Origin: Pelagomonas calceolata
Taxonomy: Eukaryota
Direction: 5' to 3'
Assembly (NCBI GenBank): GCA_918797485.1
Contig: CAKKNE010000001.1
Location: 5,456,001-5,520,000, forward strand
Length of the DNA stretch: 64,000 nucleotides
The notes beneath the pieces are model-generated. The model did not search any database. It was not told where the DNA came from and saw only the letters and a program-made list of their open reading frames with translations. A program made the position numbers and the translations under genes. This document shows positions 5,267-50,062 of the stretch, one piece after another. The stretch's first letter is position 1, and every line of letters starts with the position of its first letter.

Positions 5267-7132
5267 ATGGCATCGCTGGACACCTGCGAGCCATCGATCG
5301 ATGCCGCACGAAGAAACGGCACAAGTGCCACTGCTGAGGACATGAGCGCTGCAGGCACCGCACTGTGCGACGCCAACGACGCGACGGTCACGCCGGACAC
5401 GAGCGCCGCGCAACGAACGATCACGCCGGACACGAGCGACGAGAACGACGACAACCCTTTGTTGGATGACGTCTCGGACCCCGACGTCGACGCGTGCCTC
5501 CGCGTGCTCGACAGGATCACAAAAGACCCCGCGGCCTTCGGGACGCCGCAACATCGAAGGTTGCGCGGCGCGGTGCGCGCCGCGCACGGGGCCCTGACGG
5601 CCGGCGACTTCGGTGGCATGGACGGTTTGGTCCACGGGAGAAGGCGGCAGCTCCGGAAGGAGAGGGAAGCTAGAGCGACGCGGCGCCGCGACCTAGACCA
5701 GAAGCACCGCGACTCGACGCAGTTGAGAAAGCAGCGCATCGACAAATTGAAAGCCTTGGAGAACGACCAGGGGCCCCTTTTGCTGGCGCCGGACGGCGCG
5801 GCCAAGGAAGGTACATCATCTTTGAACGCCGAGACGACGGATAGTTTCCGACACTGCTACACGTGTAAAAAACGCTTCGACGGCCTCCACGAGTTCTACT
5901 CGCAGCTCTGTCCGTCTTGTGCTGCGCTCAACTGGCGCATGCGGTCGCGCACCGAGGACCTGTCGGGCCGCGTCGCGCTGCTCACGGGCGCGCGCGTGAA
6001 GATCGGCTTCGAGACGGGCCTCAAGCTGTTGCGGGCCGGCGCTTATTTAATAGCGACGACGCGCTTCCCCCACGACCTCGCGGCGCGCTACGGTATGCTT
6101 GCGGCGTTCTTTTTTGTGTCTTCGCCCCCGAACGCACGCGTCCGCGCAGGGCGCGAGGCCGACGCGGACGAGTGGCGCGGTCGTTTGGAGGTGCACGGCT
6201 TGGACCTGCGGGATCTGCGGGGCGTCGAGACGTTCTGCGCGTTTATCGCGGAGAGGCACGAGGCCCTGGACGTCCTGGTGAACAACGCGTGCCAGACGGT
6301 AAGACGGCCGGCGCGCTACTATTCGACGCTCGTCGAGGGCGAGCGGCGCATGAGCCTGACGGACGGTAGTGGTGGTGAGAATGGCATCGCCGTCGTGTCC
6401 TGTGTGGAAATCAAATTTTGGGCGCCCCACGCCATCGACGCGATGCTGTACCTATAATTGCGTCTGCTCGATGGCGTAGAGTTTCACGCCATCGACGCAA
6501 CCTAACTCATTGGTTGATTTCCACAGGTCGTGTCGCGCAACGACGCGTCGAAGGCGTTGGCGGTGGTAGCGCCCGAGGACGAGACCGTCTCTTTTGTCCA
6601 AGGCAAGACGGACGTCAACGGCCAGCAGCTCGACCTCCGGGAGCACAACTCCTGGACGGCGACGCTGGACGAGGTGGCGACGGCCGAGGTCGTCGAGGCC
6701 CAGGCGATTAACTGCGTGGCGCCGTTCATCCTGTGCTCGAAGCTCCAGCCGTTACTGGCGAAGGCGGCGCAGTTGCGAGATCGGGCCTTCGTCGTGAACG
6801 TCTCGGCCATGGAGGGCAAGTTTTATCGGTATAAAACCCCGAACCACCCGCACACGAACATGGCCAAGGCGTCGTTGAATATGTTGGTGAGGACCTGCGG
6901 CGCGGACCTCGCCAAACGACTACATATCTACATGACGGCGGTCGACACGGGCTGGATCAACGACGAGAACCCCGCTCCCAAGGCGTACCGCACGGCGCAG
7001 ACGGGCTTCCAGACGCCTATCGACGAAGTGGACGCGGCGGCGCGGATTCTTCATCCCGTGTTCGATGGAATCGTGTGCGAGACGCCTCTGTCAGGTGTGT
7101 TCCTGAAGGACTATGGGGAGACGGAGTGGTAG
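5267..7132 (+). CDS. Short-chain dehydrogenase/reductase with N-terminal Cys-rich motif; introns 6093-6149 and 6392-6526
   Basis: CYTCK...CPSC, TGARVKIG, LVNNA, VVNVSAMEG, HTNMAKASLNM. Removing both GT-AG introns joins ORFs 5267 and 6530 in frame. Confidence 0.88.
6392..6526 (+). mobile_element. Introner-type TIR element forming a 135-nt intron
   Basis: Exact TSD GTCGTGTC at 6392-6399 and 6527-6534. Termini CTGTGTGGAAATC...GATTTCCACAG. Internal CGCCATCG/CGATGGCG units. Confidence 0.92.
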
Positions 7133-24972: not shown

Positions 24973-25656
24973 ATGAACACGACGAACCCGCTCGGCGGCA
25001 TCCACGCCGCATTGGACCGCTACGAGGCGGACGGGCGCCCGCCCGCGGCCGAGCTGCCGCCGACGCGCGGCGCCGAGGCGGCGCTCCTCGAGCTGGGCGG
25101 GAGTCGGCCGCGCTTCGCGCTCGCGCCCGAGCCGCGCCTCTCGCTAGAACGCACCGACACGGGCATGACGCGATCGGACTCCATGACGGAGACGTCGGAG
25201 CTGCTGACGTCCCTGGCCCACGCGCGTGTCCCGCCGCCGCCGCCGCAGCGCCGGCCGCCGCCGCCGCCGCCGCCGCGCATCATTACCTTCTCGCCGCCCG
25301 GTCCCAGACGGTTAGGGTGGGTCGGCGCCTACAGCCCCGAGGCGCGGAAGAGGCGCATCGCGCGGTTCCACGCAAAGCGCAAGCGTCGCGTCCTGTGTGG
25401 AAATCAACCAGTGAGTTATTTGCGGTCACGGCGACAACGTGAAAACTCCACGCCATCGAGCAGACGCAGCTTTGGAGACACATCGCGTCGATGGCGTGGG
25501 CGCCCGATGTTTGATTTCCACACAGGCCGCGTCTGGAAGAAGTCCGTGCAGTACGACGTGCGCAAGAACTTCGCCGACACCCGCCTCCGCGTCAAAGGTC
25601 GCTTTGTCAAGAAGGAGGACGAGGTGCTGCTCAAGGAGCTCGTCGGCCTCGCCTGA
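24973..25656 (+). CDS. CCT-domain protein; intron 25385-25525
   Basis: Spliced product reads RKRRIARFHAKRKRRVWKKSVQYDVRKNFADTRLRVKGRFVK. Confidence 0.9.
   Translation: MNTTNPLGGIHAALDRYEADGRPPAAELPPTRGAEAALLELGGSRPRFALAPEPRLSLERTDTGMTRSDSMTETSELLTSLAHARVPPPPPQRRPPPPPPPRIITFSPPGPRRLGWVGAYSPEARKRRIARFHAKRKRRVLCGNQPVSYLRSRRQRENSTPSSRRSFGDTSRRWRGRPMFDFHTGRVWKKSVQYDVRKNFADTRLRVKGRFVKKEDEVLLKELVGLA
25385..25525 (+). mobile_element. Introner-type TIR element forming a 141-nt intron inside the CCT motif
   Basis: TSD GTCGCGTC / GCCGCGTC; TIRs CTGTGTGGAAATCAA...TTGATTTCCACACAG. Confidence 0.93.
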
Positions 25657-41254: not shown

Positions 41255-42682
41255 CTAGCTCTTACTCAGGACGTAGAGCGTCCCCGGGACGTCGTTCCCG
41301 TTCTCGACGCGCGGGACGATGTCCTCCGCGGACACGACCGAAAAGCCCGCGTTTGAAGCCGTCGCCCGGACGTAGTCGACGGCGTGCGCGTAGCGGCCCG
41401 AAGCTCCCAAAACCCACGTGTCGCCCGGCGCGCGCTCGCACGAGAAGACGCAGTCGCCGCCCGGCGCGAGCGCGCCGTGCCACCTTTCTAGGATCGCCGC
41501 GAGGTCCCCGAAATAACATAGCACGTCCGCCGCCGCGACGAGGTCGAACGCCTCATCATACAACGCCGCGTCCAGGAGGTCGCCTACTAGTAAAGAGTCG
41601 TAGCAGCCGAGCTCCCGGGCCTTGTCGACCATGTTCTGGCTGAGGTCCGCGCCGACGAGCCGCCCCACACTATCGCGGAGCGGCGGGCCCAGCAGCCCCG
41701 TGCCGCAGCCCGCGTCGAAGGCCGCCGCGTACGGCCCACGCTCCGCGCATTTCGCCGCGATGAGCTCGGGCGCCTTGTACTGGAGCACGTTCTGGAGCTG
41801 ATCATCAAAAGTCGGCGCGAAGTCGTCGAAGAGCGCGCGCACGAAGGCCGGCGAGGCCCGGTCCGGCGCGGCGGCGCCCTCGCGCGTCGCCAGCGCGTCG
41901 AGGGCGTGCTGCGCGAGCGGGAAGTCGCCTCCCTTTAATTCGAGGGCGGCCCGCAGCGCGTTCGCCGCCGTCTCGGCGACGGCCGCGTCGGCGTCGGCCT
42001 GGGAGCCGTCGTACAGGTTCACGTTTTCGTCGCGCGCCGTCAGCAGCACCTCGCCGTCGCCGTAGGCCTCGAAGCGCTGGGCGCTATTCAGGTCGGCGAG
42101 GCAGGCCCCGAGGCCGTAGTAGACCTCGCCGAGCGACCGGCGGATGCCTTCCACCAACTCGGCCGGCGTGCCCGGGTCCCGCTCGACGGCCTCGGCCCGC
42201 GTGATGCCCCGCTGGAAGCACTTGATCGCGTCGAGCTTCGGGGCGCCCGCGTCGGCGAGCGCGCTCCCCAGGTTCGCCCAGGCGTCCCACCGCGTCGCGT
42301 CCGCCCGCACCACGTCCCGCAGCAAGAGCGAGGCCTCGCGCGTGCTCTCGTAGCCGCCCCGCGCCTGCAGCACGCCCGCGAGGTTCTGCGCCGCGTCGAG
42401 ATGGAACGCCTCCGCCAGCGCCTCGCGGTAGAGATGCTCCGCCGCGCCCTCGTCGCCGCTGTCGAGGCACACGCTCGCGAGGTTGACGCGGCAGTCGACG
42501 GAGCCCGCCGCGGCGCCGGCCTCGTAGGCTTTTTTGGCGCCTGCTAGGTCCCCGGCCATGTAGCATTTGTTGCCCTCTGTAAGAGCGTCTTGCAGGCGGC
42601 TTGGTCGTCGTACGCTTGTTGGCGGTGCGTAGAGTGCAGTAGTTGCAGGCAAGAGCAGCAATGCTAGCAGTGCTGCGGCCAT
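41255..42682 (-). CDS. TPR-repeat SAM-dependent methyltransferase with N-terminal leader
   Basis: TPR-like helices; FVRALFDDFAPTFD..L.Y..PE; DAGCGTGLLG; GADLS; FDLVAAADVLCYFGDL; GRYAH. Confidence 0.88.
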   Translation of the reverse strand: MAAALLALLLLPATTALYAPPTSVRRPSRLQDALTEGNKCYMAGDLAGAKKAYEAGAAAGSVDCRVNLASVCLDSGDEGAAEHLYREALAEAFHLDAAQNLAGVLQARGGYESTREASLLLRDVVRADATRWDAWANLGSALADAGAPKLDAIKCFQRGITRAEAVERDPGTPAELVEGIRRSLGEVYYGLGACLADLNSAQRFEAYGDGEVLLTARDENVNLYDGSQADADAAVAETAANALRAALELKGGDFPLAQHALDALATREGAAAPDRASPAFVRALFDDFAPTFDDQLQNVLQYKAPELIAAKCAERGPYAAAFDAGCGTGLLGPPLRDSVGRLVGADLSQNMVDKARELGCYDSLLVGDLLDAALYDEAFDLVAAADVLCYFGDLAAILERWHGALAPGGDCVFSCERAPGDTWVLGASGRYAHAVDYVRATASNAGFSVVSAEDIVPRVENGNDVPGTLYVLSKS

Positions 42683-42733
42683 CGCTGCAATCGATGCGCT
42701 GCTGCAAGCTGAACTTGGGCCGCTTTGCAGGTT

Positions 42734-42755
42734 GCTAGCGGCTGAGACACACTAG
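42734..42755 (+). promoter_or_regulatory. Bipartite CTAG-flanked upstream motif (GACACACTAG variant)
   Basis: GCTAGCGGCTGAGACACACTAG between divergent genes. Confidence 0.55.
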
Positions 42756-43000
42756 AGTGCAGCAACGACGGTTGGGGAGTAGTGATTAAGTCCCAAAGAA
42801 GACTACTAGATTACGTCGAACGCTTTTATGGGAACGGCTTTCTCACCTGGCGTTAGACGCGCGCAGCGCGCATCGTTCAGATCATTTGGTGCGCGCCCGG
42901 AACAGTGGACCACGCCCGGGCAGCCCTTACGAGCGAGACAGCGCCGCAAAAGAACGCCGCCACCGTCCGGCAGCCCTTCGACGTGCGTGGACGCGCAGCC

Positions 43001-46000
43001 ATGAAAAACAAGGACAGCGCCAATACCGCGACAGGCGCAGCAGCGGTGGCGCCGAGCCCGCCCCCGCGCGGACCGAAGAACGCAGCGGCGGCGCGCGGGA
43101 TGGCGAACGGCGCCAGCGACCGCGTCGGAGCGGCGGCGGCGCGCACGATCGGCCGGTGCTCGACGGCGGCTCTTTTTGCTGCTGCGTGCGTCTACACCGT
43201 GTCTTCGGGGAGCGTCGTCCTCGTGCTGTCGGCGCTCACTGCGACGCACGCGACGATGGCGGCGGCCGTGAAGAAGAAGGGCGGCTTCTGCAGTCAGATT
43301 TGGAATTCCACGCTGAATTCGGCGGCGTTTTGGGCGTTCGCGGCGCGCACGACGGCCACGCGCTGCTCTGGCGAGTGGTCCGGTCTGCTCGGCGCGGCGA
43401 GTAGCCTAGGCGAGGACAACAGTTGGCGGTCGCTGGGCGCTGCTGCCGCCTCGGCGTGCGTCTGGGCCTTTTTCTGCGCCGTCGCCGCGCTGCTATTGCT
43501 CGCGGCGGCCCTCAATGACTTTAGAAGCTCCGCGAGGTGCGCGGCCTGGCGCAAGTGCGTCGCGCTACTGGCCTTGCCGGACCTCGCGGCGGCTCGGCTC
43601 GGACCGGCGAACGCGTCGGTCGCGCCGTTCTCGGAAAGGTTTGCTCAGGCGCGACGCAAGCTCACCATGACCGACAGCAACATCTACACGGCCGTCACGG
43701 CGTGGCTTGCGGACGCGACGGCGGCCGAGGCCGTGTACGGCCATATTTCTACGTGGGAGACTTCCGGGGTGACGGACATGTCGGAGTTGTTTTGCGCCGG
43801 GGACTATTGTGACTACTACAACTCGGGGGCAGCGTCCTTTAACGAGGACATTGGCGCGTGGGACACCTCTGGCGTCACGACGATGCGAGAGATGTTCCGA
43901 GGCGCCTCGGCCTTTAACCGAGATATCAGCAGCTGGCAGGTCGGCAGCGTCACGAGCATGGCGCACTTGTTCCTCCTAGCCTCGTCATTTAACCAAGACA
44001 TCGGCAGTTGGGCGGTCGACAGCGTCACGGAGATGAGCGGGGTCTTCTGGTACGCCTCGTCGTTCAACCAGGACATCAGTGGTTGGAACGTACAAAGCGT
44101 TACGAAGATGTCCGCCATGTTCCACCACGCCTCGTCGTTTGACCAGGACATCAGCGAGTGGGACACCTCCAGCGTAACGAACACGGATTCGATGTTCGAC
44201 GGTGCGTCGGTCTTTAACCAAAACATCGGTGGTTGGACGGTCCAGAGCGTCACTTCCATGCGGGACATGTTTGCCCACACGCCGGCCTTTAACCAGGACA
44301 TCGGCGACTGGGACGTCGACAACGTCTATATGATGGACTGGATGTTCGCCGAAGCCTCGGCCTTTAACCAGGACATCAGCGCGTGGGTCACCTCAAGCGT
44401 TACGAGAATGCCCCTGATGTTCAGCGGCGCCTCGGCCTTCAATCAGGACATCAGCGCGTGGGATGTCTCGGGCGTCACGTACATGAGCTTCATGTTCAGC
44501 GGCGCCTCGGCCTTCGACCAGGACCTGGGCTGGTGCGTTGATGAAGACGTTTTTGATCCCCATGATAGAGGCTACGACATTCACGACGCGTTCTTTAACA
44601 CCCCGTGCGCGTCGACGTCGTGCGGCGTCTCGGAAAAGGACGAAAGCGGCATCTGCCCGACGCCGCAGCCTACTCCTCAGCCGACGCCACGCCCAACTGT
44701 GAACAACGTCATGACCGACAGCAACATCTACACGGCCCGCGACGCGTGGTTTGCGGACCCGACGGCGGCCGAGGCGACGTACGGCCATATCTCCATGTGG
44801 GACACATCGGGGGTGACGGACATGGAGACCTTGTTTTGCGTGTCGCCGTCGCCGTCAAATTGGGCTGCTAACTGCAACGCGGCCGCTGCATCCTTCAACG
44901 AGGACATCAGCGCGTGGGATACCTCTAGCGTCACGAAGATGAGCTACATGTTCTATGACGCCGAGGACTTCGACCAACCAATTGGTGGCTGGGCAGTCAA
45001 TCAGGTCACGGATATGAGCTACATGTTCTACAATGCCAGGTCGTTCGACCAACCGCTCGGCGCCTGGCAGGTCGACAACGTTGAGAATATGCTCGCCCTA
45101 TTCAAAAAAGCCAGGTCGTTCAACCAACCAATTAATGACTGGAGCGTCGACAGTGTCACGGATATGGGGGGCATTTTTCACACCGCTGACGGCTTCAATC
45201 AACCGCTCAGCGCCTGGGAAGTCGGCAATGTCGAGAATATGGATGGGATGTTCATATACGCCCGGGCGTTCAACCAACCGATTAGCGGCTGGAGCGTCGA
45301 AAGCGTCACGCATATGGGCTACATGTTCGCCGAAGCTTCGGCATTCAACCAACCGCTCGGCGACTGGAACCTGCTCGACGGCGTGTCGATGACCAACATG
45401 TTCCGCGACGCCGAGGCCTTCGACCAGGACCTCGGCTGGTGCGTTGCTGATGGCGTTTTTGATCCCGATGATAGAGGGTACGACATTCACACCGCGTTCG
45501 AGAACACCCCGTGCGCGTCGACGTCGTGCGGCGTCTCGGAAAAGGATGAAAGCGGCATCTGCCCGACGCCGCACCCTACTCCTCAGCCGACGCCGCACCC
45601 AACGCCGCACCCTACTCCTCAGCCGACGCCACACCCTACTCCTCATCCGACGCCGCACCCTTCGTGGCAACCAACTCGTCGGCCTACGCCGCACCCTACT
45701 CCTCATCCGACGCCGCACCCGTCGTGGCAGCCAACGCCTCGGCCTACGTCGCTGCCAACTCCTCAGCCATCGCCGCGGCCGTCACTGCCTCCGACGCTGC
45801 GGCCGACGCCTCAACCGTCGTGGCAGCCAACACCTCGGCCTACGTCGCACCCGACGCCGATGCCGACACCGCAGCCCACTCCGGGCCCGACGCAAGTGCC
45901 GGTGCATAAATCAAACCGTCGCCGACTCGCCGCGCGTTTGAAGAAGCATGACCTCAACGCCATCGACGCGACGCCAGCTCGATGGCGTGGCGTCGTGGTC

Positions 46001-49000
46001 TGGTACCGCTGGTTCTGGCCAACACGGCGGCGTTCTCGCCGAGAGGGGACTTGGTGCAGAATTCTCGTGCGCCCCCGATTCACTGTTCGAATTGCCCACA
46101 GGCCGATGCCGACGCCGCAGCCGACGCCGCACCCGTCGTGGCAGCCAACGCCTCGGCCTACGCCGCACCCGACTCCGCACCCTTCGTGGCAGCCATCGCC
46201 TCGGCCTACGTCGCGGCCATCGCCGTCGCCCACCGTCGTGCCGGGCAGCCCGACGGCGCGCCCTGTCTTCAACCCGACGCCAAGGCCTACATCTCGACCA
46301 ACTCCCCAGCCCACAGCAAATCCTACGCCCCGACCGACGCCCATGCCGACTCCCGCGCCGAGCGCACGCCCTACGCCTGGGCCAACGCCGAAACCGACGT
46401 CGTCGCCGACCCGGCGGCCTACACCGCGGCCCACGCCGATTCCGTCGCCCCTGCCGTCGCGGCCGCCGACACCCGCGCCGTTGCCGGCTCCGTCGCTCAG
46501 GCCCACGCCGCGGCCGACGCCGCGCCCGACCTTTACTCCGACGCCGGCGCCGTCACCGGTGCCCGGAAGTCCGACGCAGCGGCCGACGCCCAGACCTACG
46601 CCGAGGCCTACTCCAGCGCCTACGTCGAGGCCGACGACGCCGGCCCCAACGCCGACCCAGATGGTCGTCCAGATTACATCGTCAGTGACGCTCGAGGGCA
46701 TCGTCGCCGTCGTTTTCAATGCCGACAAGGACGGCATGCAAGCTGCGTTTGCGCAGTCGATCATCGACAGCGTCGGCGGGCTCTTCGAAGAGATCATCGA
46801 AATCGAGGCCACCGAGCAGCGACGGCGCTTGCAAACAACGTATTCGCCGACAGCTGCGCCGACGTCCATGCAAGACGAGGAGGAGGACGAGGAGGAGGAA
46901 GACGTCGTCGAAATATCATACACGGGCGTCGCGCGCGTCGACGGCACCGACGGCGAGGCTGCCTCGGCGGATTTGTTGGAGCAATCTATGGACGCAATGA
47001 CGTTAGCGATCTATGATGGTAGTTTCTTGGCCACGCTGCAGGCCTCAGACCCTGCGTTCTCTGCCGTGGCCGTAGACGTCGACGCGACGCAAGCGGCGAT
47101 CGAGGCGGCGTCATATACGTTCGTCTTCCTGACGCCGGGGCCCACCGCCGCGCCTACGCTGGGCCCGACCCCGAGAATCACGTTTCCCGGAGCGGCCGAA
47201 AGCTCGTTTGACCCGCCCACGAACTCCAGCGCCAGCGGTTCCGGCACCGGCCCTGCTCTGGCGTCTACCCATATCATATTGATTGCCGTCGGTGGCGCTG
47301 TGCTTTTCTTGATAATGATCGGGTCGGCCGTGACTGTGTGGCGCCGCGAGCACGCGAGGCAGCAGCCCAAGCGGCCGACGGACGAAGCCATCGACGTCGA
47401 ACTCGGATCAAATGAGGCGGCGCTGGAGCGCCACCGGGACGTGACCAAAGTCGTGGCAACGGGCATGAGCCTCGTGAACACGCTGCTCACAGCGGGTTCT
47501 CTCGTGCCCTTCGTCGGAGACATCGCCGAGGTCGCGAACGAGTTCTTTGGCTCCGCCAGCGAATTTGGGGACAAGGCGGACGACGTCGTCACCGCGGCGC
47601 GGCGCGTCGTGGAGGTGCTGCAGCTGGTAGACCTCATGACGAAGAACGCGGACTCGCTGATAGAAGGCAAGGATATCGTGGAGGCGCGGATGCGGCAACT
47701 GCTAGAGCTGCTGCAATCTTTCCACGCCGCCGTGCGGGCCTTTGGCACGCGGGGCTGGTTTAAGAGAATGTGGACGATCCGCGAACACGTTGACTCGTTG
47801 TCGGAGCTGGATCGCGACATCAAGCTGCAGCTCGAGATGTTTCGAGACGCCTACCGGCTCGCGGTGGACAATGTTTACCTGGAGCGAACCTACAGGATCG
47901 AGCAGGCCATTGAGCGGCTTGTGGCCGAGAGAGTGCAGACGACCGGCGAGTCCAAAGCGACGGCCGTCGAGGCGCTGTCCAAGGACGCGGCGACAGTCGA
48001 GGCCGTCGGCGCGCACCTGCCGGCAGAGGAGTTCGCCGCCGAGCTACGAGAGTTCCACATACAGCTCCGGGCCGACGTGAAGGAGCTGCTGCGCCGCGAC
48101 TCGTCCCTCCGGAAGAAGCTGTTGCGTCGCGATTCGTCGCTGAAAAAGAGGCTGGGCAGCCTCGCCAACTCGCTGACGAAGAAGACCCAAGCGGAGACCG
48201 TGCGGTCACTCAAAAGCGACACGCTGGCGCAGCTCGAGGTTACCTTGGATAGCGTGGAGGACGTGCCCTTCGCACAGGGCGGCCAGGGCGAGGTTTTTAA
48301 CGGAACTTTGGCCGGTGAAGAAGTATGCCTGAAGAAAGTGTCGCTGGTCGGGTGCACCGCGGCCGGGCGCGAGCGGCTGCTGCGCCAGTTCAAGACGGAG
48401 CTTCTTATTATGGCGCGCTTGCATTCGCCGCGGACGGTCCGCGTCCTCGGCGTCGTCAGCACAGACCCGCGGTATCTCGGACTCGTCATGGAGTACATGT
48501 CGGGAGGCAGCGTGCGCAACGCGCTCGACTCCGGCTTGGGCTTGGCGGCCGACGTGCGGCGGACGTGGTGCTCCGACATCGCCGCGGGTATGCGCTACTT
48601 GTACGCGCAAGGCGTCGAGCACCGGGATCTCAAGTGCGCGAACTGCTTGCTCACGGCGGAAGGCAGGGTGAAAGTTGTGGACTTCGGGCTCGCGCGCTGC
48701 GAGGAGCTGCGCACCCAGCTCACGTCGACGATCGCGATGCACCTCAAAGGCACGCCGGCGTTCATGGCCCCGGAACTTTTGGAAGACCAGACGTTCACGG
48801 AGAAGTCTGACGTGTATTCCTACGCCATCGTGCTGTGGGAGATTTACGACCGAGGCATCCCGTGGTCGGGCCTCATGCCGGCCCAGATCATTTCCAAGGT
48901 GATCGTCAAGCACGCGCGGCCGCCGGTGCCCAAGGGCATGCCCGCCAACCTCCGCACCCTGATGTGCCGCTGCTGGGCCCACAAACCCGACAAGCGGCCA

Positions 49001-49294
49001 ACCTTCGCCGAGGTCGTCAAGGAGGTCGCGGTGCCGACGCCGCGCCGGCCGAGCTTGAGTTCGTTCGCGGCCACGGCCGCGCCCGGGCTGGCCCGGGACG
49101 AGACGCCGTCGGGGCAGGGTCCGACGCGCTCGCTCGGGAGCGGCGTCCTCGACAGGCTCCGCGGCGTCTTTACTCCGTCGCGCGAGGCCGCGGCCGACGC
49201 GCCGCCGCCGCCGCCGCCGCCGCCTGGCGCGACGGTCTCGGCGGGCGAGTCCGTCGACGTCATGGAGCTGTCTATTGATGGTGTGGATTGCTGA
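43001..49294 (+). CDS. Receptor-like kinase: two DUF285/BspA-like repeat modules, Pro/Thr stalk, TM, MLKL/HeLo-like helical domain, TKL kinase; intron 45892-46101
   Basis: 25-aa FNQDIxxWDxSxVTxMxxMF repeats; PTP repeats; TM about 47270-47340; kinase [33 protein letters not shown]. Start codon uncertain. Confidence 0.85.
45892..46101 (+). mobile_element. Degenerate introner-type element forming a 210-nt GC-AG intron
   Basis: GCAAGT donor; CCCACAG acceptor; degenerate TSD GCAAGTGC / GCCGATGC; internal CGCCATCGACGCG...CGATGGCG. Removal restores the PTPMPTPQ repeat. Confidence 0.8.
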
Positions 49295-49375: not shown

Positions 49376-50062
49376 CTAGAACCGAACCTTAAGGTACACG
49401 ACGAACGCGACGACGGCGCCGAGGCATATGAGCGGCGCGTACTGCTGCCACGCGACCATCAAACTAAACTTCTTCGCGCCCCACTTGTACTTGCCCGCCT
49501 CGGACCGGAGCGTCTGCGACGTCTCCACGAGCGCGTCGAGGCGCTCGCCCCGGTTGAGCACCTCGTCGATGTTCCGCCGCATGATGCTGTGGATGTCCGC
49601 GAGGTCCGCGTCGAGCTGAGACGCCGCGCCCACCCGTCGCGGGTCGGCGTACTGCCGCCGCTTCGCCTGGAGCCGCCGGTCGAACTGGATGTACGCGTAG
49701 GGCCGGCCGACCGTCGCGACCGCCTGCCGCCAGTCGCCGCCGTTGCATGTATTTGTAACTTCCTGGACGAACTCCTGCGCGACCTCGCCCAAATAGCGGA
49801 AGATCGCCCGCTTCGGGTAGCTCTTGGGCGTCATCGCGAGGTAGACGACCGCGTCGGAGATGACGTAGTGGAACGCAAAGGGCCCGCTGTCGATGGAGCA
49901 CTTCGACGGCGAGCGCTCCGTGAGGCCCGCGAGGATCTGTTTGGCCTGGCTCTTGTAGACGTCCATCGTCTCCTGGCTGTCGCTGGAGCGCATCGGGTCC
50001 GTCGACGCGACCAGCAACATGCCGTCGGCGACGCGCGCGATGAAGCAGAGGTTGACGCCCAT
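49376..50062 (-). CDS. SEC22: Longin R-SNARE SEC22
   Basis: FIARVADGMLLVAS, YKSQAKQI, SYPKR, RPYAYIQFD, IMRRNIDEVLNRGERLD, C-terminal TM. Confidence 0.95.
   Translation of the reverse strand: MGVNLCFIARVADGMLLVASTDPMRSSDSQETMDVYKSQAKQILAGLTERSPSKCSIDSGPFAFHYVISDAVVYLAMTPKSYPKRAIFRYLGEVAQEFVQEVTNTCNGGDWRQAVATVGRPYAYIQFDRRLQAKRRQYADPRRVGAASQLDADLADIHSIMRRNIDEVLNRGERLDALVETSQTLRSEAGKYKWGAKKFSLMVAWQQYAPLICLGAVVAFVVYLKVRF

Follow-up and report, generated by a model that had tools for sequence, protein, structure and literature searches.

A predicted MLKL-like helical bundle between the transmembrane helix and the kinase of a Pelagomonas calceolata receptor

The subject of this report is a gene on the forward strand of Pelagomonas calceolata, at 43001..49294 of a 64,000-nucleotide (nt) stretch of genomic DNA (assembly GCA_918797485.1, contig CAKKNE010000001.1, positions 5,456,001 to 5,520,000), which we refer to as the window and to which all coordinates apply. 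Among its closest described counterparts is wheat Pm13, an MLKL-K protein. According to the available part of that report, Pm13 has, like the window gene, an MLKL_NTD, a helical brace and a catalytically competent kinase; however, its bundle comes first, it carries no predicted signal peptide and it is found in cytoplasm and nucleus, whereas the corresponding unit in the window lies behind an ectodomain, a transmembrane (TM) helix and an extra helix (PMC11297308). Vertebrate MLKL (6ux8, 4btf) and AtMLKL3 (6ka4; 10.1101/681015, available in part) share with it the bundle, predicted here in the same register, as well as brace helices and a kinase fold, but MLKLs are soluble pseudokinases with a free N-terminus and a separate activating kinase, whereas the window protein has intact kinase motifs and an acidic core and is a membrane protein. 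The additional N-terminal helix is shared with the MLKL-like/Goodbye-like effector domains of basidiomycetes, which, in the portion of the preprint accessible to us, sit on intracellular NLRs with NACHT or NB-ARC domains and not behind a TM helix in a receptor kinase (10.1101/2022.03.16.484565). On the extracellular side, PARCEL/DUF285 proteins of bacteria and microalgae resemble the window protein in their variable 25-residue repeats and membrane targeting, and the accessible sections of their description present them as surface proteins, not coupled to a death-type bundle or a kinase (PMC2996958). RPW8 and the NRG1 CC-R domain (7l7v) share the bundle fold, and unlike the window protein they are parts of helper NLRs or stand alone, with a free first helix.

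In plants and oomycetes, receptor-like kinases and receptor-like proteins likewise have a variable ectodomain, one TM helix and a TKL-type kinase, and kinase-less partners occur. We know of no such receptor-like kinase with an MLKL-like bundle between TM helix and kinase. In the literature searched, whose coverage mostly excluded subscription papers and preprint supplements, reports of an MLKL_NTD joined to a kinase concerned wheat and fungi, and no TM-tethered MLKL-like receptor was described; the position of the bundle behind the TM helix is therefore undescribed there, while its component parts are known. The architecture that we report is real, expressed, multi-copy and assembled from such known parts. 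Its interpretation as a single-pass receptor whose MLKL-like bundle would serve as a membrane effector is tentative, with a probability of about 0.4.

Architecture of the gene and the predicted bundle

The frame divides into the following parts (aa, amino acids).

43001..49294, + strand: whole coding frame, stop-free, 2097 aa unspliced and 2027 aa spliced; the predicted start is the first ATG
43001..43666, + strand: leader, with hydrophobic stretches at aa 58-90 and 153-171 and an RRKL motif at its end
43667..44656, + strand: DUF285/PARCEL block 1, 10 repeats, each of 25 aa, flanked by Cys-containing caps
44711..45562, + strand: DUF285/PARCEL block 2, 8 repeats, protein identity to block 1 of 48%
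45563..46660, + strand: Pro/Thr-rich stalk, read from the sequence, with an intron inside
46661..47269, + strand: extracellular juxtamembrane domain of ~200 aa with an RRRL motif and an acidic run, 62% identical to the relative P0001
47273..47329, + strand: TM helix (aa 1425-1443), Kyte-Doolittle (KD) value 2.65, followed by basic residues; C-terminus predicted cytosolic
47408..47494, + strand: extra helix alpha0 (model helix 2-30), upstream of the position equivalent to MLKL residue 1
47504..47872, + strand: predicted MLKL_N/RPW8-like four-helix core, containing the GWFKRMW motif
47891..48250, + strand: brace-like helical linker from bundle to kinase, helical in a low-confidence model
48272..49024, + strand: protein kinase, best Pfam match PK_Tyr_Ser-Thr, with beta3 Lys, alphaC Glu and APE present

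The original prediction, made from the sequence alone, described a single chain with DUF285-type extracellular repeats, a Pro/Thr stalk, a TM helix, an MLKL/HeLo-like four-helix bundle and an intact kinase, and most of this stands. The motifs that it named lie in the frame (SLVPFVGD at 47498, WFKRMW at 47756, IKLQLEMF at 47819, HRDLK at 48620, DFG at 48680 and APE at 48767), as do the stalk and the TM helix. The repeats match Pfam DUF285 (PF03382; E 1.8e-153, 502.5 bits against a cut-off of 25) and PARCEL TIGR02167 (E 8.6e-41, 137.1 bits against a cut-off of 30) and, as a pattern search located them (10 at aa 280-505 and 8 at aa 632-807, all spaced by 25 aa), they form two blocks rather than one. 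The kinase (Pfam PK_Tyr_Ser-Thr, E 1.2e-52, aa 1758-2008) keeps all its catalytic residues, with the beta3 Lys in VCLKK at 48323 and the alphaC Glu in FKTE at 48389 in addition to HRD, DFG and APE, and among alleles it is 97-100% identical. Both the order typical of receptor-like kinases (ectodomain, single TM helix, cytosolic kinase) and that of MLKL-K/Pm13-type proteins (MLKL_NTD, brace, active-type kinase) are thus found in one chain, which departs from MLKL proper in not being a pseudokinase and from the soluble MLKL-K/Pm13 proteins in its TM helix.

The open frame speaks for the continuity of this chain, as do an independent environmental contig (L001) that is 97.7% identical to the window from the intron to past the stop, and a 2022-nt contig from the unstranded RNA run X2, which covers 46921-48942, and with it TM helix, bundle and kinase, at flat depth and with 0 differences. 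Separate genes for ectodomain and kinase are rejected, since there is no in-frame stop and the allele and RNA contigs cross the junction. In full-length relatives, the order of TM helix, bundle and kinase is identical.

The claim of an MLKL/RPW8-like segment fared less uniformly: it is upheld through relatives and through the register of a model, and not by a Pfam match of the segment itself. The segment has no match to MLKL_N (PF22215) at E<=1 or E<=0.1, its only Pfam matches being CCDC28 (the best) and a faint one to HET. An exhaustive homologue search returned 161 clusters at E<=0.001, of which 150 were listed. Eligibility for alignment required a length of no more than 800 aa and 135 or more aligned residues; the family alignment consists of the query and 66 of the 73 stored relatives that qualified, six near-duplicates and one two-copy protein having been removed. 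At E<=0.1, MLKL_N is matched by 30 of the 67 aligned members (these are related, and the counts are not independent), and RPW8 by 4 of 67. One homologue, P0069, which is 30% identical to the window bundle, exceeds the curated MLKL_N cut-off (27.6 versus 27 bits), and the members matching MLKL_N include the TM-bearing P0078 (E 9.7e-5), P0142 (E 2.2e-4) and P0009 (E 0.012). HeLo (PF14479) is not among the 25 Pfam families listed, out of 174, for the aligned members, and SesA and NACHT_N appear as faint matches in a single member each.

A model of the bundle built from the alignment (pLDDT 89, pTM 0.80) has helices at residues 2-30, 37-53, 59-80, 89-114, 118-125 and 132-178. In VIA-align it superposes on human MLKL 6ux8 (Z 11.1, rmsd 3.4, 122 aligned), AtMLKL3 6ka4 (Z 10.5, rmsd 4.0, 130 aligned), mouse MLKL 4btf (Z 10.4, rmsd 2.8, 99 aligned) and NRG1 CC-R 7l7v (Z 8.7, rmsd 3.6, 107 aligned); the segment thus models as a bundle that superposes on three MLKL structures, and not as the plain coiled coil that would have told against the original prediction. 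All three MLKL chains align from model residue 34-35, that is, from the VP motif, at MLKL residue 1, and the Pfam MLKL_N profile in the homologues also begins at this motif (profile position 1-3). It is this common register in three chains and a profile that persuades us despite the middling Z. Taken together, alignment and model predict an MLKL-type core with one additional N-terminal helix.

Searches with other tools gave a mixed picture. In the ESM Atlas, the homologue P0061 (35% identical) lies near MLKL_N-bearing clusters (0.92, 188 features), with MLKL_N on 36% of that cluster's members and 10 of 10 named matches in one clan; the top-ranked cluster carries no family, and MCAfunc clusters are among the look-alikes (0.87). 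Foldseek with the pLDDT 89 model retrieved nothing at E<=0.001 from the PDB (best IncA, E 0.02) or from viral structures, and sequence and profile searches of solved structures returned no MLKL chain. Folding of aa 1446-1756 from the single sequence gave a poor model (pLDDT 55) whose Foldseek search was uninformative. A four-copy complex of bundle and brace, computed with the alignment unused and with its own fold uncertain, scored 0.00, which counts neither for nor against oligomerisation. At one position two turns into alpha1 (47525-47527, model residue 41), most members have Cys (consensus PhhG.hC) and the window's clade has Ala, which on one reading of the sequences may be a lost acylation site.

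Ectodomain exchange and a kinase-less paralogue

To survey TM helices we applied a hydropathy rule to 101 sequences with at least 125 aligned residues (the window and 100 of 162 stored relatives). The rule assigns an upstream TM helix to 34 of them, and 13 of the 34, the window included, keep the kinase motifs HxDxKxxN and DFG, many of the others being fragments. In a quick tree the TM members fall mainly into two supported groups, where they make up 18 of 26 rows (with the window) and 14 of 17 rows. The ectodomain joined to the shared TM-bundle-kinase unit varies and includes FG-GAP_2, FG-GAP_3, C-type lectin, SRCR and DUF285 domains; P0001, for example, combines FG-GAP_2 and a C-type lectin with a bundle 76-78% identical to the window's. 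Swapped ectodomains, which the original prediction proposed to look for among paralogues, are accordingly found.

Of the named members, those of receptor type belong to Chrysophaeum taylorii and Aureoumbra lagunensis, whereas C. taylorii (ankyrin-rich; Roc-COR-CHAT) and a haptophyte, Prymnesium parvum (kinase-LRR), contribute soluble ones. The soluble fusion partners of the bundle comprise ankyrin, TPR, LRR-kinase, helicase and Roc-COR-CHAT domains; in P0046, P0039, P0044, P0041, P0092, P0095 and P0067, the partners are Roc-COR-CHAT, long ankyrin arrays, kinase-LRR, or helicase-like or SAM/2OG domains. Fusions of this kind are common among immune effectors. Judging from these domain combinations, the soluble fusions in pelagophytes and a haptophyte could possibly represent an algal immune repertoire.

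Six stored proteins consist of bundle and brace followed by a Pro/Ala tail and end without a kinase, although some may be assembly chimeras. P0202, which is P. calceolata CAH0378614.1 on a 3.9-Mb contig, has exactly the order DUF285, stalk, TM helix, bundle, brace and tail. It is 83% identical to the window gene over 259 aa and has the brace in common with it over most of the brace's length, and bundle and brace are its sole folded cytosolic part. Retention of a folded bundle in the cytosol sets it apart from the receptor-like proteins of plants and oomycetes. P0005 and P0008 are likewise kinase-less DUF285-TM-bundle receptors, and proteins of the P0202 type offer a cleaner test object for bundle function than the window's gene does.

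The environmental allele L001 differs from the window at 53 positions in 46801-47866 (5.0%), compared with 2 and 6 positions in the flanks (0.2% and 0.4%), and 11 of its 20 amino-acid differences agree with one of four paralogues. This 1.07-kb tract, which spans the juxtamembrane domain, TM helix and bundle, suggests gene conversion among paralogues, although a chimeric assembly would look alike. No paralogue was found elsewhere within the 64-kb window. A profile search of longer proteins gave 3 relatives, all already known, among 7993 scored candidates, and close-match patterns run on viral contigs gave 11 candidates and 0 confirmed relatives, the alignment being too variable for a distant scan.

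RNA, intron and flanking sequence

Stranded RNA was available as four raw-read runs, all from sample S1 and read to 6-12%, with the strand inferred from the minus-strand neighbour at 49376-50062 (first mate on the + strand). RNA and splicing define three further features.

48339..49050, + strand: internal sense RNA at high depth, whose 5' ends accumulate at 48339 and 48351; 3' end uncertain
42741..48017, - strand: antisense RNA over the ectodomain-coding part, sample S1, approximate ends
45892..46101, + strand: GC-AG intron of 210 nt, joint 45891>46102 in a run X6 contig at depth 27.4

The internal sense RNA starts in the kinase N-lobe and stands 15-30x above the sequence directly upstream, S1 sense depth being 158-368 over the 3' part of the kinase (158-311 over 48340-49024). 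No loose ends are listed at the two 5'-end piles. The first in-frame ATG, at 48410, follows the Gly loop, the beta3 Lys and the alphaC Glu, so that any product would necessarily lack kinase activity. The drop in depth after about 49050, where GC content is 77-85%, leaves the 3' end uncertain. Antisense depth over the ectodomain is about 12-60 in X21 and 4-25 in X23. The antisense reads end near 48017, and a two-way promoter inside the brace/kinase junction is possible; the RNA pattern is seen in S1 and X6 but is absent from X2 and X8. A scan of 47900-48420 for bacterial promoters, with a model ill-suited to a eukaryote, found none. Since the kinase excess occurs in S1 and in the X1 and X6 contigs but not in X2 or X8, the full receptor seems condition- or strain-dependent.

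The intron lies within the stalk, in frame and stop-free. Splicing would give the mature protein of 2027 aa, and retention would preserve the frame, as the GC-donor intron is a multiple of three without a stop; a GT donor is ruled out by the joint seen, which is GC..AG. Similar intron starts recur in the window at 6402, 25395, 52132 and 52447 on the + strand and at 25523, 52212, 52619 and 56838 on the - strand, a repeated family that we take to be of the introner type. The part of one study available to us places the peak of P. calceolata intron lengths near 210 nt (PMC9481584).

The last part of the leader resembles the leaders of the DUF285 paralogues P0014 and P0202, and an L003 match begins at 43558 with 69% identity. 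The juxtamembrane domain (46661-47269) has 0 Pfam families at E<=1; it is common to the paralogues, its RRRL motif is a possible cleavage site, and we take it to be reminiscent of SEA-type modules. By reading of translations, the flanking genes are a TPR and SAM-methyltransferase-like gene at 41255-42682 (- strand) and a Sec22-like SNARE at 49376-50062 (- strand), with no hint of a functional link to the receptor.

A tethered bundle: proposed mechanism and alternatives

In the mechanism that we propose, the DUF285 repeats would bind a ligand outside the cell and cluster the chain, the receptor's own kinase would phosphorylate and thereby switch the predicted MLKL-like bundle at the plasma membrane, and the bundle would disturb the membrane, leading to ion influx, defence signalling or cell death. 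Because alpha0 and the TM helix precede the equivalent of MLKL's first residue, there is no free N-terminal helix to release; instead, the alpha0-alpha1 hairpin might insert into the membrane, or the bundle might be cut free. As to the ligand, the available portions of two studies credit AaV, the giant virus of the pelagophyte Aureococcus, with 38 DUF285 proteins (PMC10720644) and describe these as being in flux with the host (10.1101/2024.10.30.620910). With DUF285 common to virus and host, homotypic repeat recognition is conceivable.

Comparison of classes within the family bears on how a tethered bundle might act. After reduction of the 101 sequences to 76 at 70% identity (among them 16 TM, 34 N-terminal and 22 internal members), alpha0 is present in 16/16 TM, 33/34 N-terminal and 22/22 internal members; being near-universal, it indicates that no part of the family depends on a free start like that of MLKL. 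A myristoylation-like start, found by pattern match in 10 of 67 non-TM members, likewise makes a tethered N-terminus common in the family. Alpha0 and alpha1, which flank the conserved VP motif, form a hairpin of moderate hydrophobicity that does not differ between TM and soluble members (1.52 versus 1.48). Of 16 TM members, 14 retain the Trp of GWxKR. From the helix order of the model, this Trp/basic motif would lie at the TM-linker end of the bundle.

A number of observations weigh against a membrane effector. Structurally, in the VIA-align ranking of 48,161 chains, four designed proteins stand above 6ux8, as does CAMP factor (Z 12.9), a second CAMP entry ranks between 6ux8 and 6ka4, and a bundle Z under about 13 can reflect a common arrangement; together with the missing Pfam match, this bears on the bundle's identity. 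As for its activity, alpha0, a 25-aa linker and the TM helix all lie upstream of the MLKL-residue-1 equivalent, so that the bundle lacks the free N-terminus of MLKL. N-terminal tags impair killing by mouse and human MLKL, as stated in the part of that study available to us (PMC7305131). The wheat MLKL_NTD of Pm13 is, on the accessible text, non-lethal alone or with the brace, and it is brace plus active kinase that kills (PMC11297308); the role of N-terminally extended fungal bundles is termed open in the accessible part of the preprint that describes them (10.1101/2022.03.16.484565). The window core has a net charge of -7, and acidity is greater among TM members than among N-terminal ones (-2.6 versus +1.3), with a p of 6e-4 that is overstated because the sequences are related. 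The high identity to the kinase-less paralogue may, on the sequences, reflect exchange rather than selection. Expression counts here as well, as S1 sense depth upstream of 48339 does not exceed 11 over 45600-48339 at 98% likeness (X22, X24) and 0 over 42500-43704. Finally, the blocked N-terminus, the behaviour of Pm13 and the response of DUF285 genes to light and nitrate weaken, in our analysis, the role in immunity or programmed death against viruses or bacteria that had originally been suggested.

Much of this fits a receptor kinase in the manner of Pm13, in which the bundle would be an auto-inhibitory or clustering module and phosphorylation the output: the ligand would lift a clamp, brace helices would join the kinases, and kinase-less paralogues would act as co-receptors or decoys through the shared bundle and brace. 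We regard this as quite possible, given catalytic residues that are intact, unlike those of MLKL pseudokinases, kinase motifs in 13 of the 34 TM-labelled members with many of the rest fragments, a kinase near-invariant among alleles, a blocked bundle N-terminus and an acidic core, and the same bundle-brace-active kinase order around a non-toxic bundle in the accessible account of Pm13 (PMC11297308). It sits less well with the hydrophobic hairpin and Trp/basic motif retained in TM members, with the many soluble members that have repeats instead of a kinase match, and with bundle and brace retained in a kinase-less receptor: with no kinase in cis to regulate, the retained bundle places the membrane effector slightly ahead of a kinase regulator. 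A receptor for stress acclimation, adhesion or cell-cell recognition, with the bundle active in sub-lethal ion signalling rather than defence, seems unlikely. Ion signalling by plant MCA-type domains provides a model for such activity, and MCAfunc clusters are among the Atlas look-alikes. In the accessible part of one preprint, 45 of 75 P. calceolata DUF285 genes are up in dim light, which fits stress acclimation, and DUF285 genes are up under nitrate limitation (10.64898/2026.09.29.755320), while AtMLKL immunity is, in the available portion of another, separable from death (10.1101/681015). Against this, exchange among lectin, SRCR, FG-GAP and repeat modules suits recognition of changing biological ligands, and the AaV complement of DUF285 proteins in flux with the host also speaks against this reading.

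Two further alternatives were weighed. A copy mostly silenced, arisen from module shuffling, at which internal kinase-fragment and antisense RNA are chiefly made and full receptor is rare, is suggested by the high sense depth confined to the 3' part of the kinase and the antisense RNA over the ectodomain in S1; we consider it very unlikely, as the frame is unbroken across 6.3 kb and also in the environmental allele, X6 shows sense-strand splicing of the intron at a depth comparable to that of flanking contigs, and X2 depth is flat from 46921 to 48942. Least probable of all is an unrelated helical bundle or coiled coil with a chance likeness to MLKL: CCDC28 as best Pfam match in place of MLKL, no Foldseek match at E<=0.001 and no MLKL chain in the solved-structure searches would agree with it, but three methods concur on the same register at the VP motif and P0069 exceeds the curated cut-off.

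The membrane-effector reading thus remains the one that we prefer. Its broader form, a family in pelagophyte picoalgae that unites surface sensor and executioner through swappable ectodomains, one TM helix, an MLKL-type membrane-attack bundle and an optional kinase, is doubtful. If true, death receptor, RIPK and MLKL would be compressed into a single polypeptide, and abundant marine phytoplankton would possess a suicide defence that varies and may be directed at giant viruses. How phytoplankton recognise attackers and die in a regulated way has long been an open question, and few executioners have been named; the family supplies concrete candidates that can be cloned, in an alga that is in culture, has been sequenced and is abundant worldwide. 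Receptors with and without a kinase occur naturally, with bundles that differ little, so that whether the bundle or the kinase provides the output can be tested directly. The family also extends the MLKL/HeLo/RPW8 superfamily to pelagophytes and one haptophyte, and the DUF285 repeats, common to pelagophytes and their giant virus, gain a signalling context.

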